Virus record (IMG/VR): IMGVR_UViG_3300045988_100792
Length of the DNA: 31,250 nucleotides
Reading direction: 5' to 3' (one strand)
DNA from: a virus
Lineage: Duplodnaviria > Heunggongvirae > Uroviricota > Caudoviricetes
Shown here: piece after piece, positions 2,924 through 9,792 of the stretch
How positions within the stretch are numbered: position 1 is the stretch's first letter
How the letters are laid out: every line of letters begins with the position of its first letter
The notes under the pieces: model-generated
What the model saw: the letters and a program-made list of their open reading frames with translations, nothing else
Databases searched by the model: none
Told to the model about the DNA's origin: nothing
Translations under genes and position numbers: made by a program

Positions 2924-4114
2924 TTAATTGCTGTTAACCGAGGTGACCAGATTTGCCAGGTATTTATCGGTAATACGCTGGCGCAGGGTCAGATTTTCAA
3001 GAGGAGGCACCGGGGTATAGTCGTAGTCGATATACAGTTTGCCGGCCTTGAGGGTTTCCGCATCGTTGGACTCTTCGCTGAACCAGCATGTACCATCCAC
3101 GATATAACCGTTGTTTTTCAGTTCACGGAATTTGGCATTGATGCCGTCAATGATGTCGCGAATCAGCGTTGCGGTGATGGGCTTATCAATAGCCCACATG
3201 TGCGCCTCAGCCATCGTGTCGGCCAGTACCTGCGCGGTGCGGGTGTAACTTTCAAAGAGGAACAGCGGATCATCAGAGCAGGTACGGTTACCCCAGAAGC
3301 GGAAACCGTCGCGGCGAATCAGCGTAGTGACGCCTGACTCGTTAAGCAGGTCAGCATCAGTGCCCGGCTTCTGCAAATCCCAGAAGACGGATGCACTGAT
3401 GCCGGTAACACCGTTCACCCCGACGTTGGACAGCGTTTTATGCCAGCCCTGCTCCTGGTCGATTTTAGCGCGCAGACCCAGCGCACGGGCGGTGGCATAC
3501 GCGGTGGCGGTGGTACTGGTAACCGTATCCCATGCGAGGAAATCCGGCCAGATGACCATCAGCTCACGCTGGCTGAAATTCTGACGGTAGGCTTTTGCCT
3601 CGGAAATGGTCTTACAGCCCCATGCGCTGATATACCCGAATGCATTCAGTTCCTGGCATACCGATGCCAGTGCGACGGCGACCTCTTTGGTGTCCAGTCC
3701 CGGCACGCCGAGAATACGCGGTTTAACGCCGGTAACCGACTCAGCGCCCATCAGGGCTTTCAGTCCGGTGTACTGACCGTTTTCGTCGGTGGTGCCGATG
3801 ATATTGGAAACGGTCTGCGCGAGTTTCGTTTCTTCGTCGTCGCCGGTGCCGTCTTCCACACGCACGACAACGGTGACCGGTTTTGACTGGTCAGCGATGG
3901 CCTGCAGCGACGCCGCCAGCGTGCCTTTTTTACCGGCCTTTGCAATTGCGCTCTGCACATTGGTAATCAGCACAGGTTTATTGAGGGGGAAGGTTTCCGC
4001 ATCCGCATCGCTGGCCGTGCAGACCATGCCGACAATGGCAGTGGATACAGTGGAAATGACGCGGGTGCCGTCGTTAATCTCCAGCACCTGCACGCCGTGA
4101 TGATAGTCACTCAT
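2924..4114 (-). CDS. FI: Contractile tail sheath protein gpFI (396 aa)
   Basis: 396-aa ORF MSDYHHGVQVLEINDGTRVIS...; first gene of the FI-FII-E-T-U-D tail operon; length matches P2 FI. Confidence 0.9.
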   Translation of the reverse strand: MSDYHHGVQVLEINDGTRVISTVSTAIVGMVCTASDADAETFPLNKPVLITNVQSAIAKAGKKGTLAASLQAIADQSKPVTVVVRVEDGTGDDEETKLAQTVSNIIGTTDENGQYTGLKALMGAESVTGVKPRILGVPGLDTKEVAVALASVCQELNAFGYISAWGCKTISEAKAYRQNFSQRELMVIWPDFLAWDTVTSTTATAYATARALGLRAKIDQEQGWHKTLSNVGVNGVTGISASVFWDLQKPGTDADLLNESGVTTLIRRDGFRFWGNRTCSDDPLFLFESYTRTAQVLADTMAEAHMWAIDKPITATLIRDIIDGINAKFRELKNNGYIVDGTCWFSEESNDAETLKAGKLYIDYDYTPVPPLENLTLRQRITDKYLANLVTSVNSN

Positions 4115-4204
4115 CCGTTTAACTCCGTGGTTAATGGGTGCAACTATTTTCTGTTGTGCAGAGCATGAGACGCTATTTGACCTGGCTGGTCAGGGGATGA
4201 AACA

Positions 4205-4233
4205 ACAGACAAAGAAAAGGCGGGTAATCCGCC
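4205..4233 (-). terminator. Candidate rho-independent terminator (minus strand)
   Basis: GGCGG / CCGCC 5-bp stem (4219..4223 / 4229..4233) with loop GTAAT, followed on the minus strand by UUUUCUUUGUCUG. Short stem, so weak call. Confidence 0.3.
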
Positions 4234-4624
4234 AGCCTATCCTGATTTGTACTCACTCATTTTCCAACTGACAATTTACATAGCCCAAACGCTATCAAAT
4301 CTGACAGTCTGCTTTGAGCGAAAAGCGGACATTTAGTTGGCCGGCTTAATTAGAATGTAGTGAGGAACTAGGAACTGGGGCATAACCTCGCAACTGCGCA
4401 GCCCACCCCTCTAAGAAAAGGCTCAGTGTTAATTGAACGGCGACGATATGCTTGACGTGCTGAAGACTTTTCAGTCACGCTCTGACAAAATTTTCGATAA
4501 AATTAAATAGTTTCAATGGTATGATAAATAAATACTCTGGAATCGGGGTAAGGCTAGGGTGTCACCACCCCGACTTCCCCGCGGTTAAAACACGCTACCC
4601 TGTATGGTTAAATATTGAGGATAT

Positions 4625-5380
4625 ATGGCAGCAGAAACAGTAGTCACAGATGCAGCAGGTACATTAGATACAGCAATAACAATAATAGGTTTTATTGCCA
4701 CAATAGCCTCATTAGTACTCGCCATTGGGGCTATTTGGCTTTCTTTTGTTTTTTATAAAATGTCGAATGAGGCTTCTAAAGAGACAACTAAAGCAGCAAA
4801 AGACATCCAGGCAAGTGTCGAACGACTGGAAAAAATATTTGACAAGTTATATTCAGATACATTCTCTATGATGAGAGATACGGTAACGGATATGCGTCAG
4901 CACATATGGAAAAAACCCCATGCAGGAAGCTCTGATGAGATTCTCAACAATGAAGAAAAAATAAACAACCTCAAGAACAGCATTAGTCAGGAAATTATTT
5001 GCATCGTTGATGAAAAGCTTAAGTCCAATGGAGATAATGAAACTAAAATCAAAGAGTTAGAGAGTAAGATCAAGAAAGTTCTTGATAGTGGAATACAAAA
5101 AACCATTCGTTCACAAGCAGTACCTACAATCTTAATGCGTCGTAAAGCACTAAGTCTGATAAGGCGATATGAAAAGATTAAAGTGGAAGAACTATTGAGA
5201 AAAATGAACATTCTGTTCTCAGAGGATCATTCTTTTAACGATAATGAGTTCATGGAAGCATTATTTAATCTTCGTGAGAACGGATGGATAACATGGACCG
5301 GCCCCTCCGGAAGGATATCCTTAAACGATTATCTTCTTTACATTGGCGATGGCGAGAAAAATAAAGAGGCCAAGGAATAG
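4625..5380 (+). CDS. Hypothetical membrane-anchored coiled-coil protein (251 aa); cargo gene in the Z/fun-type slot
   Basis: Only + strand gene in a run of minus-strand late genes. GAGG at 4617..4620 just upstream of ATG 4625. Visibly AT-rich versus flanks. One hydrophobic helix TAITIIGFIATIASLVLAIGAIWLSFVFY near the N-terminus, then a K/E-rich heptad-like region and a C-terminal globular segment. No family recognised. Confidence 0.75.
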   Translation: MAAETVVTDAAGTLDTAITIIGFIATIASLVLAIGAIWLSFVFYKMSNEASKETTKAAKDIQASVERLEKIFDKLYSDTFSMMRDTVTDMRQHIWKKPHAGSSDEILNNEEKINNLKNSISQEIICIVDEKLKSNGDNETKIKELESKIKKVLDSGIQKTIRSQAVPTILMRRKALSLIRRYEKIKVEELLRKMNILFSEDHSFNDNEFMEALFNLRENGWITWTGPSGRISLNDYLLYIGDGEKNKEAKE

Positions 5381-5572
5381 CTCGCAAAATTTCGTTATTG
5401 TAAAGAGGCCGCAGTGAGATAGATCCTTGCTGCAGCCATTTTCATGAAGCGAACATTTCTAATGAGCTAGACTTAGCCATTCACTCTGCCCGTTTTTGGC
5501 ACAGAGCGGACTGTCAGATTAGTCTTTACTCTGTGCCATAGATATGTAAGCTCACACCAGAGCTCATACAAC

Positions 5573-6100
5573 TTATTGCGGCATTTCCGGCCATTCAGGA
5601 TTTGCAGGATCCACACGACTGACCAGAACGCTGTAACGCTCCCATGCATCCAGTCGGCTACGCTCCTCATCTGTTGCCATGTTCAGTCTGACCGCGCGCT
5701 CCAGCGGCAAAATCACGGATTCAGCATCTGCAAGAAGTCTGGCTTTCCGAATTTCTGCCTGCTGCTGTAATTCCTCTTCCGTATAAATGCGTTTAATCAC
5801 TTTGCCGTCCTTAAACATCCAGTTCCCTGAAATGTCCGCCCGCCGATTAGCAGTAATATCCGCCACTTCAACCACACTTAATCCATCCGGTCTGATAGCT
5901 GTCACATCCTTTTCCACATAGCGGATAATATTATCTTTGTCGTACGCTATTTTTATCGTGTCATCAGCAAAATACTTTTGTTGTTCGTACCAGTTCTTAC
6001 CATCTTCTGAAAAAAACCAGACAACATCAAAGTCCTTTGTCAATTGATATTGTTCAACCGTTTTTGGATTACCCGCCGTAATATTTTTTAAATGCTGCAT
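5573..6100 (-). CDS. G: Tail fibre assembly chaperone gpG (175 aa)
   Basis: 175-aa ORF directly downstream of the tail fibre gene H; length and position as P2 G. Confidence 0.85.
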
Positions 6101-6103
6101 AAA

Positions 6104-8350
6104 TTATACCTGCGCCACGTTATACCATGTCCCGTTAATGTATTTCTGCACTGGTCTGTAATATACGCCACCAATGTTATCGGCAGAGTTTGAGCCGGTA
6201 TCCTGAACAATAATGCCGGTATATACGCAACCTGACGGAGCCTGATGCGTCCATGTAGTACCATTATTTGCTGGTTTATATGTAGATGCACCGCCCAGCC
6301 GCATGTCTCTCACATAACGTGAATCTGACTCAGCTTTGGTGTATGCACCAACATCTCCCGCTGAGGGTTTTCGTGTTGTGGTATAGAAATCAGACCAGCC
6401 AGATTCAAAACCATAACCATCACGGGCTGACCTGTAAGATATACCGCCATTTTTATAATTCACACGAAACTGTACAGCCGGGCAGCTACCAGCATTTATA
6501 TTAAAGTGAAGAATTAATGCAGATGCTCCCCCAATCAGAGCGTTGTATGCGCCACTGTCCCAATTCCATCCAACGGCTGTATCACCATTAACCGTATTAC
6601 CTGTCTGCCGAAGTGCAAATGCACCGACATTTCTGGCATTAAGGGTAATATCTCCAGAACCATCAAAGGCAACACCTGCTATTTTCCTCGGTGTTTCGAG
6701 TTTTGAGGCTGTTGCAGCATTTCCTGAAAGGTTAGAAATAAATGGATGTGAGCAGTAATAACCGCGCCCATTTTTAAAATCCAGAATAGCCTGTGCGTTC
6801 GTGCTTTCTGTAGCGGGATTAGTTGCCCCCCACTTATATGTCGTTTGACCGACGACATAATCCTCTGTCGGAACAATAACCGTTAGCCCTTCCTCTGCAA
6901 GAATTTGCACAGGGAAAGCTCTGGCTTCAACATAAAAAACACTACATACATCATCATCTTTCAGGCTTGTAACAATGGAATGGATTGAACGCTCATTGGT
7001 CTGATACGTCCAGAAATAACCTGCCGCATATGAACCACGATCAGTCCATCCTCCGGGCATAACCATGCCATTAAACTCGCAGTTATTCATTACATAATCG
7101 CCGTTATAACAACCAGTGGAAATAACGACGCGGGATGCCATTTCTCCTGAAAGGCTGGCAGCACGGCGAAAGATAACGGGATACCACTTCCCGGCAACGA
7201 CATTTGCAGGGGCTGCAAACGAATACTTTCGCATTCCCTTTTTCTTATCCACTTCACCTTTGCTGTAAACATTAATGTTACTCAGGAAGCGTTCTTTATC
7301 AGGAATATCCGCACCGTTCTGATCTTTCTGAAGACGTTTTTCAGCATTGTCATTGGCAGACTTCACCGCTTTTGGTGTTGCGGCCAGCGTTTCAGAATCA
7401 CTGTTGGTGGCGCTACTTAGCTGGACAAGACCTTTTCGCGCTGTGGTGGCATCCTGTGCAGTGTATTTCCCGTTAGCAAGGTCATACGCTGTCTTAACCG
7501 CCTTTGGCGTTGCGGCCAGCGTTTCAGAATCGCTGTTGGTGGCACTACTGAGCTGAACAAGGCCTTTTCGCGCGGTGGTGGCATCCTGTGCAGTGTATTT
7601 CCCGTTAGCAAGGTCATATGCTGCTTTTACCGCTTTTGGTGTTGCGGCGAGCGTTTCAGACGTGCTGTTGGTGGCACTACTGAGCTGGACAAGACCTTTT
7701 CGCCCCGTGCTGGCGTCCTGAGCGGTATATTTTCCGTTAGCAAGGTCATATGCTGCTTTTACCGCTTTTGGTGTTGCGGCGAGTGTTTCAGACGTGCTGT
7801 TGGTCGCACTGCTTAACTGAGTAAAACCTTTGGCGGTCAGCGAGGCGTCCGGGTGACGTCGTGACTGTTCATGTTCTGCAATTTTGTCATCAACATAATC
7901 CTGCGTTGCCATCACCGTTGTGGTGTCAATGGTCAGCTCCACTGAGGCCACACTGCTGACGATGATGACCATACGGCAGGTCTGCGAACGCCCTGAGCCT
8001 TCGGCAAGGGCAGGCTTATAACTTTCGGCCATGTTCGCCACGGCAATTAACGTTCCCGCATCATCGTACAGGCCAAGCTCACGCATCCAGAAACCGCCCA
8101 CCTCCGGCGGAATAACCAGCTCTGCGATAATATAATTACTGTTTCGTTTGTCCTGGCTGATTTTGTTCAGCGCATGTCGCCAGACTTCGTGGATAAGCCC
8201 GGTCTGTCCGGCATCCGGGACAGGCAATTTACCACCGCCATCCCCGACGGCCATCGTGGTAATGTTGACCTTCCGCCCTCCCGGCGCGGTTGCCGCTGCC
8301 AGCTTTGCTGCACCGGCAGTGGTGATAACGGTTCTGAATTTTGTGCTCAT
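6104..8350 (-). CDS. H: Tail fibre protein gpH (748 aa) with internal tandem repeats
   Basis: N-terminus MSTKFRTVITTAGAAKLAAATAPGG... typical of P2-type H; four tandem copies of a 44-aa unit (LSSATNSxSETLAATPKAVKxAYDLANGKYTAQDA...); Gly/Tyr/Trp-rich C-terminal receptor-binding-like region. Longer than the 669 aa I recall for P2 H. Confidence 0.9.
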   Translation of the reverse strand: MSTKFRTVITTAGAAKLAAATAPGGRKVNITTMAVGDGGGKLPVPDAGQTGLIHEVWRHALNKISQDKRNSNYIIAELVIPPEVGGFWMRELGLYDDAGTLIAVANMAESYKPALAEGSGRSQTCRMVIIVSSVASVELTIDTTTVMATQDYVDDKIAEHEQSRRHPDASLTAKGFTQLSSATNSTSETLAATPKAVKAAYDLANGKYTAQDASTGRKGLVQLSSATNSTSETLAATPKAVKAAYDLANGKYTAQDATTARKGLVQLSSATNSDSETLAATPKAVKTAYDLANGKYTAQDATTARKGLVQLSSATNSDSETLAATPKAVKSANDNAEKRLQKDQNGADIPDKERFLSNINVYSKGEVDKKKGMRKYSFAAPANVVAGKWYPVIFRRAASLSGEMASRVVISTGCYNGDYVMNNCEFNGMVMPGGWTDRGSYAAGYFWTYQTNERSIHSIVTSLKDDDVCSVFYVEARAFPVQILAEEGLTVIVPTEDYVVGQTTYKWGATNPATESTNAQAILDFKNGRGYYCSHPFISNLSGNAATASKLETPRKIAGVAFDGSGDITLNARNVGAFALRQTGNTVNGDTAVGWNWDSGAYNALIGGASALILHFNINAGSCPAVQFRVNYKNGGISYRSARDGYGFESGWSDFYTTTRKPSAGDVGAYTKAESDSRYVRDMRLGGASTYKPANNGTTWTHQAPSGCVYTGIIVQDTGSNSADNIGGVYYRPVQKYINGTWYNVAQV
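7362..7860. repeat. Tandem 132-bp repeats inside H (about 4 copies)
   Basis: Near-identical 132-bp units beginning at 7381, 7513, 7645 and 7777 (cggccagcgtttcagaatc... / cggcgagcgtttcagacgtg...), with partial copies at both edges; in frame, giving the 44-aa protein repeat. Confidence 0.85.
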
Positions 8351-8891: not shown

Positions 8892-9792
8892 CCGAGCCTC
8901 CGGTCACGACGCGGTATTCGGTACAGAAAGACGCCTGCGTACTGTTGAGCACGATGTCGGCCAGTGGTGCTGCCAGTTCGACACGCTGCACACCTTCCAC
9001 ATGCAAAGCGGCATAAATGGCAGACAGACGGATGTCGCGCCCCAGCCGGTGCTGTGCCGTGATATACGCTTCCAGTTTTTTCACGGCGGCAGCGCGGATG
9101 GGTTCGCTTTCGGGACCAGGGTAAAGGTAAAGCGTGGCGTTTATCTGGTATTCAACGATGGCGGCAGACTGCACGGTCACGCGGTCGGCCACCGGCCTGA
9201 CGTCCTCACCATTAAGGGCGTTACGCACCACGGCCAGCAGGTCTTCGGATGCAACACCGTTATTTTCACGTGACAGCACAGAGATGGTGACGCAGGCCGG
9301 AGACGGACTGGTGACAGAGATATCCGCGACACGCCCGTCGGCACTGCGACCATGATACTGATAGGCACCCACCGACCCGGCGACGCTTAAGCCCTCAAAC
9401 GCCTGCTGAATACGCAGACGATAATCGGTGTCAGACTCCATCACTGCCGGTGTCGGCGGAATGGTCGAATCATCTGCCGGGGTGATAGTCAGGCGCGTGG
9501 TGTTGTAATTGGCACCAATCACATCAAGGTCATTACCGGCTGCACAGGCCAGCATCACCGCCCGTGCAGCCTCATTCACACGCTGACGCCAGATAAGCTC
9601 ACGATAAGCATTTTCCTCCAGCAGTTTGACGAGAGGCTCGGATTCCAGCGTCAGGGTACGGGCGACCGCCTCCTGCTGGTCTTCCGGGTAAAGGGAAATC
9701 AGTGTCGCCTTGCGTTCGGCAAGAATGGTTTCAAAGTCCAGCTCCTCGACCACATCCGGTGCGGGTAGCTGGTTCAGGTCGATAATCGGCAT
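8884..9792 (-). CDS. J: Baseplate wedge protein gpJ (302 aa)
   Basis: 302-aa ORF MPIIDLNQLPAPDVVEELDFETIL...; order and length as P2 J. Confidence 0.88.
   Translation of the reverse strand: MPIIDLNQLPAPDVVEELDFETILAERKATLISLYPEDQQEAVARTLTLESEPLVKLLEENAYRELIWRQRVNEAARAVMLACAAGNDLDVIGANYNTTRLTITPADDSTIPPTPAVMESDTDYRLRIQQAFEGLSVAGSVGAYQYHGRSADGRVADISVTSPSPACVTISVLSRENNGVASEDLLAVVRNALNGEDVRPVADRVTVQSAAIVEYQINATLYLYPGPESEPIRAAAVKKLEAYITAQHRLGRDIRLSAIYAALHVEGVQRVELAAPLADIVLNSTQASFCTEYRVVTGGSDE

Follow-up and report, generated by a model that had tools for sequence, protein, structure and literature searches.

The subject of this study is a single-gene cassette carried by a virus of the class Caudoviricetes (IMG/VR record IMGVR_UViG_3300045988_100792), in a stretch of 31,250 nucleotides (nt) that is referred to here in its full length as the window. 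The gene, an open reading frame (ORF) of 251 amino acids (aa) at 4625..5380 on the plus strand, lies in the 1,458-bp interval 4115–5572, a sequence shared at 100% identity with Peduovirus P22H4 (LR595869 / NC_049385) and with Escherichia phage 9W. It is flanked on the left by FI, the tail sheath gene (2924..4114, minus strand; a 396-aa ORF annotated in phage 9W as tail sheath monomer GpFI), and on the right by G, the tail fiber assembly gene (5573..6100, minus strand; a 175-aa ORF, GpG in the phage 9W annotation), both of which belong to the phage backbone. A first-pass annotation made from the letters alone had described an AT-rich ORF opposed to its neighbors, at the position where P2 carries Z/fun, and all of these points are borne out: the ORF begins with ATG and opposes both FI and G, its GC content is 0.37 (GC3 0.35), lower than that of FI (0.56), G (0.45) and the window as a whole (0.52), and P2 itself has fun(Z) in the equivalent G/FI slot, likewise on the strand opposing the late genes. 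The fun(Z) gene of P2 blocks T5. As is characteristic of the Z/fun hotspot, the slot of the window lies inside conserved inverted repeats and its content varies among P2-like phages.

Anatomy of the cassette

The limits of the cargo were set by alignment against four P2-like phages with other cargo: Wphi, P24C9, P2-EC67 and P2. Positions 4100–4330 and ~5490–5700 are conserved P2-like backbone in this alignment, with homology stopping at 4329–4333 and restarting at 5484–5497. What lies between is a variable cargo cassette of ~1.16 kb (~4331..5487, plus strand; 39% GC) with no counterpart in the other P2-like phages. The G–FI gap is real, as first described, but the proposed 1.46-kb insertion shrinks to ~1.16 kb of cargo, the remainder being backbone. 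The non-coding region upstream of the gene is also present, but it measures 510 rather than 480 nt and its first ~216 nt are backbone containing, on the other strand, the predicted pF late promoter.

A 24-nt hairpin stands at each exact limit of the cargo. The left boundary (4298..4331), which is the last conserved backbone before the cargo, consists of AATCTGACA and hairpin L (4307–4330, GTCTGCTTT-GAGCGA-AAAGCGGAC); the right boundary (5487..5538), the first conserved backbone past it, consists of hairpin R (5488–5511, GCCCGTTTT-TGGCAC-AGAGCGGAC) and TGTCAGATT. The two hairpins have a common stem (GTCCGCTTT/AAAGCGGAC) and distinct loops, GAGCGA and TGGCAC, and with their outward flanks AATCTGACA and TGTCAGATT they form a 34-nt inverted repeat (4298–4331 / 5487–5520) that is 82% complementary. 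Two matches to the hairpin pattern occur where chance would give 0.01. Homology with Wphi, P24C9, P2-EC67 and P2 reaches hairpin L and ends directly on its cargo side. The element at 4298–4331 is annotated as 'right inverted repeat' in the 'Z-region' record AJ512685, and the element at 5487–5538 as 'left inverted repeat'.

An inverted repeat had also been reported downstream of the gene, with an implied role as part of it. This repeat (TGGCACAGAG / CTCTGTGCCA, 5497–5506 / 5529–5538) is exact and folds strongly (-27.9 kcal/mol, z -4.0, 0/200 shuffles as stable), but it marks the hotspot boundary and is not part of the gene. The 10-bp hairpin that it forms is an alternative fold overlapping R and is kept in all of the compared P2-like phages. 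We rejected it as the terminator of the gene because a U-run is missing on both strands and the sequence is backbone.

The same hairpins are found around cargo in unrelated settings. In Escherichia coli 2013C-4991, L and R hairpins bracket a SMODS nucleotidyltransferase and SLATT pair in the interval between hokD and DUF977 (L056 4603–4626 and 7600–7623), and in a lambdoid copy of the cassette (L002) they lie at 8002–8025 and 9194–9217. Viral contig L062, which encodes the protein with 98% aa identity, has four hairpins (at 5656, 6876, 7817 and 8698) between small single-gene units arranged in a row, and the Citrobacter, Serratia oryzae and Hafnia copies retain degenerate hairpins at both ends. 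Because they surround cargo in P2-like phages, in some lambdoid prophages, in L062 and, in degenerate form, in these more distant copies, L and R behave, by sequence comparison, as cassette ends common to unrelated phage backbones, and they look like such shared ends or like crossover points. A 2004 article by Nilsson et al. in Mol Biol Evol reportedly ties the Z locus, in its title, to site-specific recombination. The hairpins were also considered as a universal trait of the lambdoid hokD–DUF977 hotspot, which was rejected, as three other cargo variants there lack them.

Between the hairpins, the gene is accompanied by candidate signals for its own expression. A conserved regulatory region at 4425..4525 (plus strand), our candidate promoter, comprises an extended -10 element (TGgTATGAT, 4517–4525), an imperfect palindrome (CGTGCTGAA..TTCAGTCACG, ~4456–4479) that is possibly an operator, and a 20-codon upstream ORF. 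The extended -10 element is present in all four aligned cassettes that retain the upstream region; a generic promoter scan returned sites no more numerous than in shuffles. A non-coding stretch of ~290 nt upstream of the gene travels with it and can be aligned in the copies of Citrobacter koseri (89% aa identity), Serratia oryzae (80%), Hafnia (84%) and a Klebsiella IncF plasmid (58%). Compared with the Klebsiella plasmid copy, the window is 81.5% identical at -200..-101, 77% over codons 1–95 and 66% over the remaining coding sequence, and the region 100–200 nt upstream of the ATG is conserved above the coding sequence between distant cassettes. On the same plasmid (L028 8138–8236), a second, partial copy of the upstream region occurs ~410 nt downstream of the gene (nhmmer E 2.7e-4) and may be a relic of an adjoining cassette. 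The upstream ORF (4448–4510, plus strand; MLDVLKTFQSRSDKIFDKIK) is preserved in the copies of Citrobacter and Klebsiella and interrupted by a stop in Serratia oryzae. It contains the pentapeptide KIFDK, which also occurs in the invariant motif ERLEKIFDKLY of the main protein, probably by chance.

The predicted 5′ leader of ~90 nt (4532..4624, plus strand) contains the expected GAGG just before the start codon, a Shine-Dalgarno element at 4617–4620, four nt from the ATG. Its sequence is conserved out to Pectobacterium (nhmmer E 1.6e-8). A structured leader or riboswitch was considered and rejected, as the leader has no covariation and a fold z of -0.33; Rfam gave no match at E ≤ 1 across 4000–5700. 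An intrinsic terminator (5407..5445, plus strand) follows ~30 nt past the stop codon, with a 12-pair hairpin at 5407–5437 and then AUUUUCAU (-17.7 kcal/mol, z -3.0, 0/200 shuffles as stable). Five cassettes retain it; among them, one pair has changed in a compensatory way (A-U/U-A) and several G-U changes affect one side only. With a predicted promoter region and leader, a terminator of its own and a single gene, the cassette is, as far as its sequence can be read, a self-contained moron.

The encoded protein and its family

The protein is single-pass, anchored in the inner membrane, and ends in a winged helix. Its segments are an N-terminal tail (residues 1–16), a transmembrane (TM) helix (17–44), a conserved juxtamembrane helix (45–95), variable helices (106–163), the winged helix (166–240) and a charged tail. 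The one N-terminal hydrophobic helix noted in the first-pass annotation is indeed the single hydrophobic segment, at 17–44, with a Kyte-Doolittle peak of 2.39. There are no basic residues in the 16 positions before this helix and four in the 16 after it, and two homologues have an OST-HTH domain added at the C-terminus (E ~1e-10). On account of this asymmetry and of the OST-HTH extensions, we infer a topology in which the N-terminus would be periplasmic and the C-terminus cytoplasmic.

Two AlphaFold2 models, based on 35 and 108 sequences, have mean predicted local distance difference test (pLDDT) scores of 67–68. One long helix is predicted for residues 5–95, followed by low-confidence helices at 106–133 and 139–163 and by a helix-strand-helix-helix-strand-strand arrangement at 166–240, where the pLDDT is mostly 74–88 and ~66–73 at 201–210. 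The three helices, the β-hairpin wing, the order of the elements and the structural similarity to solved winged helices together identify the modeled domain as a winged helix. No winged-helix match by sequence rises above its curated Pfam cut-off: PF21128 (MCM4_WHD) is reached at E 0.002 with 18.6 bits, against a cut-off of 24.4, and a homologue scores 24.2 bits with PF25212, against 27.6. The middle of the protein had been called a coiled coil, a label that is unproven: both models make the segment a helix, but a crude test for heptads, which scored a/d positions in 28-residue windows, is not significant, with best p values of ~0.06 (52–79 and 73–100) and non-significant values elsewhere.

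The earlier verdict that no family could be recognized holds for the curated libraries, as neither Pfam nor NCBIfam contains a significant family for the 251-aa protein. It does not hold more widely. The protein matches phrog_36054 (E 2.8e-176, residues 1–251 of a 251-position profile), which is listed under 'unknown function', and hundreds of homologues exist: 351 relatives as 90%-identity clusters, and 700 representatives at 50% identity with E ≤ 1e-3, 270 of which have E ≤ 1e-30. The best 150 of the 700 are 150–309 aa long and aligned across most of their length. Searches of the literature found no mention of the protein accessions or of the PHROG; the phage record P22H4 / LR595869 is itself cited in two papers.

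Conservation is distributed very unevenly along the protein. Mean pairwise identity is 70% in the TM helix, 73% at 45–60 and 86% at 61–95, as opposed to 27% in the linker helices and 27% in the winged helix. Residues invariant in 108 sequences include R67, L68, E69, F72, L75, Y76, D78, T79, F80, M82 and M83, as well as T86, V87, D89, M90, R91 and W95. A search with residues 1–100 revealed no fusions of the N-terminal module to enzymatic or effector domains, and returned only short forms bearing this module alone. In Thiorhodospira sibirica (L031 7980–8654) the gene of this family is broken into a 113-aa and a 110-aa ORF, and is probably a pseudogene produced by a frameshift.

Relationships to functionally defined proteins were sought by several routes. 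Comparison of the family alignment with P2 Fun(Z) by hhalign gave no homology (probability 0.05–0.1%, E 0.79). SieB, Imm, holin and spanin profiles had no Pfam match, with a PHROG Rz-like spanin reaching only E 1.1, and neither DUF4041 nor GIY-YIG appeared in the Pfam scan at E ≤ 10. Homology to a structural or morphogenetic protein, which the first-pass annotation had named as grounds for abandoning a defense role, was not found in the Pfam, PADLOC, PHROGs and NCBIfam searches.

Distribution and genomic contexts

The gene is rare and widely scattered. It is present in 10 of 5,426 complete E. coli genomes, in 3 of 50,697 phage records (from two phages), in 3 of 72,556 plasmids (Klebsiella IncF, adjoining an ISNCY transposase) and in 8 of 2.9 million IMG/VR viral contigs. 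Among 100,044 species genomes there are 24 carriers, from the Gamma-, Beta- and Alphaproteobacteria, Bacteroidota, Desulfobacterota, Actinomycetota, Bacillota, Zixibacteria and Campylobacterales, and one homologue is source-labelled Methanoregula. The gene is solo in all contexts examined.

A close relative of the cassette, 97.6–99.3% identical, lies between hokD and the DUF977 gene of a lambdoid prophage. In the prophage of E. coli 1506D011 the match extends over 4306–5538, both hairpins included, with 97.6% identity. Placement in P2-like phages is not constant. A Hafnia P2-like prophage (L063 5183–8103) carries the cassette (84% aa identity) at the junction of S (tail completion) and V (baseplate) on the late-gene strand, which shows that the cassette is tied neither to one slot nor to one orientation. 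In Serratia marcescens prophages the gene lies between the small-terminase gene and an ORF that precedes the portal gene and probably encodes the large terminase, and in Citrobacter koseri it is located at prophage ends. In Pectobacterium and Alcaligenes it adjoins inovirus prophages and antitoxin-like genes. In Limnohabitans it sits among ordinary genes, with sulfur-transporter-like genes adjacent to efp on one side and earP on the other.

The three ORFs closest to the gene in either direction were combined for 22 species loci outside Enterobacterales, giving 120 ORFs. Their Pfam matches are mostly to housekeeping families, including Radical SAM (three ORFs), sugar/MFS transporters (two), methyltransferases (two) and single matches to DAHP synthase, GidA, ALAD and polyphosphate kinase. 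Counted over the pool as a whole, PADLOC matches are few: mads, AbiLi, PD-T4-6 and PDC-S06. Defense guilt by association in distant genomes was rejected on this basis.

Some further features of these regions are of interest in themselves. The hokD–DUF977 interval (L002 7400–9800) varies in content among Qin/Rac-like lambdoid prophages and is a hotspot in its own right. A query that includes it has matches in 4,839 of the 5,426 E. coli genomes, some of which cover hokD only, and its cargos include QueH, a methyltransferase, an alpha/beta hydrolase, DUF7167, DUF5677 and the SMODS and SLATT pair. The G/FI slot of Peduovirus P24C9 (L015 4277–5583) is occupied by two genes that run on the strand of the late genes and are annotated as a YfbT-like (HAD) phosphatase and a NUDIX hydrolase, possibly a two-gene system.

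In the backbone between FI and hairpin L, the pF late promoter region is predicted at 4138..4211 on the minus strand, with a start at ~4138–4140 and an activator site at ~4183–4211. These positions are mapped by homology from the annotation of the P2 record, which places the activator site 69–97 nt, and the start of transcription 26 nt, upstream of FI, via an 81% alignment of 4100–4329 with L013 3667–3434. A small G+C hairpin followed by a T-run, pointing toward FI (4219..4233, minus strand), is terminator-like in a consensus scan (-12.9 kcal/mol, z -1.8) and might conceivably serve as an insulator against read-through from the cargo. A 45-aa ORF on the plus strand (4134–4271), a 'hypothetical protein' in phage 9W, overlies the pF region of the backbone; it is probably not a gene, because the promoter accounts for its conservation.

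Possible functions and comparison with known systems

The kind of slot and the kind of element described here are already well known; the protein family is uncharacterized. The Z/fun locus has been described as a second defense-enriched hotspot with three validated phage defense (PD) systems (PMC9519451; bioRxiv 10.1101/2024.10.15.618418), and P2 defense genes show a solo, mobile pattern (bioRxiv 10.64898/2026.02.27.708500, which likewise treats the locus as enriched in defense). An anti-phage role is plausible for the present gene because its slot is such a documented defense hotspot. From its occurrence in two hotspots, its pattern of mobility, its patchy distribution and its two-speed evolution, we infer that the most likely role is a one-protein anti-phage function expressed from the prophage, to which we assign a probability of about 0.35. 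The protein could be divided into a sensor and an effector. The variable winged helix would recognize nucleic acid or protein of the invader at the inner membrane face. The TM and juxtamembrane module would act by associating with itself and by harming or blocking the membrane, so that infection would be aborted or excluded. It is doubtful, though worth proposing, that the family is a new one of one-polypeptide immune proteins, with a winged-helix sensor and an oligomerizing membrane module, in a hairpin-ended cassette that plugs into P2-like and lambdoid hotspots and plasmids.

Several observations weigh against an anti-phage role. No known or candidate defense model of PADLOC-DB 2.0.0 is matched significantly by the protein (the best is PDC-M49B, E 0.42 and 9.2 bits), neither its accessions nor its peptide motif are present in the DefensePredictor supplementary files, and it contains no enzymatic domain or demonstrated pore-forming motif. 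The central helices have a pLDDT of 50–60, with no gain from the second AlphaFold2 run on 108 sequences. The putative recognition helix NEFMEALFNLREN of the window protein is acidic, and DNA binding is therefore not favored. The rarity of the family in viral contigs and the housekeeping character of the surveyed neighborhoods point in the same direction, and the conserved TM and juxtamembrane module could equally reflect a universal membrane partner in the host.

A non-defense accessory membrane protein, acting in envelope stress tolerance, in tethering of DNA or of the element, or as a membrane-tethered regulator of its own palindrome or of host genes, is possible but rather unlikely. It would be in keeping with the predominance of housekeeping neighbors outside Enterobacterales, with the constant architecture of the family (no swapping of effector domains in ~700 clusters), with the existence of short forms made of the N-terminal module only, and with an upstream region whose conservation, palindrome included, exceeds that of the coding sequence, as expected of an (auto)regulated gene. 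Its distribution is nevertheless extremely patchy (24/100,044 species) and the Enterobacterales copies are tied to phage hotspots, plasmids and prophage ends, so that a gene of conflict or cargo fits better than one of physiology; a fast-diverging C-terminal half is also unexpected for a housekeeping regulator. We consider it improbable that the protein instead blocks genome entry directly and without cell death, its winged helix binding the incoming DNA end or ejected proteins such as the tape measure so that injection or circularization fails, in the manner of SNIPE minus its nuclease or of Ltp / HK97 gp15-type exclusion. The predicted topology equals the one determined experimentally for SNIPE, N-out and single-pass with a cytoplasmic nucleic-acid-binding part (PMC13190303), the top structural matches include the protein-binding winged helices of cullin WHB and RPA32, and both the acidic recognition helix of the window member and the prophage-borne location of the gene would suit such a blocker. 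Entry blockers are, however, usually partner-specific and narrow, whereas the membrane module hardly varies between Enterobacterales, Actinomycetota, Bacillota and the source-labelled Methanoregula; many homologues lie outside prophages, and the protein has no nuclease or other DNA-destroying activity.

A selfish stabilization or toxic element, in which a membrane toxin would be restrained by the leader and upstream region in a hok-type manner with no direct anti-phage role, is the least probable of these explanations and, in our estimate, very unlikely. The protein is small and lies in the membrane, its TM helix is very conserved, its upstream region and leader are conserved and possibly regulatory, and in several contexts it adjoins hokD and antitoxin-like genes. 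The proximity to hokD reflects the position of the hotspot, however, and not linkage. Neither an antitoxin partner nor an antisense RNA was found, nor any match in Rfam, the leader has no covariation or unusual stability, and 251 aa with a folded cytoplasmic domain are unlike type I toxins.

If an anti-phage function is correct, the gene would enlarge the cargo of the Z/fun hotspot, which has been less explored, by a compact, enzyme-free, single-gene system. It would also offer an entry point to a family that lacks annotation, comprises ~700 clusters at 50% identity and has a membrane module unusually conserved across phyla. If it is not, the gene is a warning that occupancy of a defense hotspot is insufficient evidence of defense. 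Whatever the function, the locus illustrates how cargo of the P2 hotspot is packaged, with two related hairpins enclosing a regulatory region, a gene and a terminator, and the sharing of the cassette with lambdoid and other prophages and with plasmids bears on the swapping of accessory and defense genes among mobile elements.

Compared with known systems, the cassette resembles the fun(Z) cargo of P2, with which it shares the G–FI slot, the orientation against the late operons, the conserved inverted-repeat hairpins and the AT-rich, foreign character of the DNA. The products differ: Fun(Z) has 527 aa, and the window protein has no sequence relation to it or to the PD systems modeled in PADLOC. 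Like the morons of lambdoid phages, units of promoter, gene and terminator set among backbone genes, the cassette has a deviant base composition, its own terminator and a promoter-like element, and is inserted between two late operons. It is more regular than morons in their classical description, in that its ends are two related 24-nt hairpins, which recur in P2-like and some lambdoid hotspots and in L062. Within the winged-helix superfamily (MarR/PadR/ROK, cullin WHB, the RPA32 C-terminal domain and Z-alpha), the protein is set apart by sequence matches below curated cut-offs and by its N-terminal membrane anchor.

Two membrane-associated defense systems offer functional parallels. RexAB combines a cytoplasmic sensor with a membrane effector, is encoded by a prophage and is expressed in lysogeny. 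The sensor–membrane module logic proposed here for the window protein would be analogous to abortive infection of this type, although both parts would reside in one 251-aa polypeptide with a single TM helix, and there is no homology. SNIPE (PD-lambda-1) is a nuclease bound to the membrane and acting at genome injection (PMC13190303); it came from a functional E. coli pangenome screen in which most systems are in mobile elements (PMC13190303; PMC9519451). The window protein lacks SNIPE's DUF4041 domain and its GIY-YIG nuclease domain, and its cytoplasmic globular domain is a 75-aa winged helix. It resembles SNIPE in being the product of a single gene, with one N-terminal TM helix, a domain of a nucleic-acid-binding type and, by prediction, a periplasmic N-terminus and an elongated cytoplasmic part.

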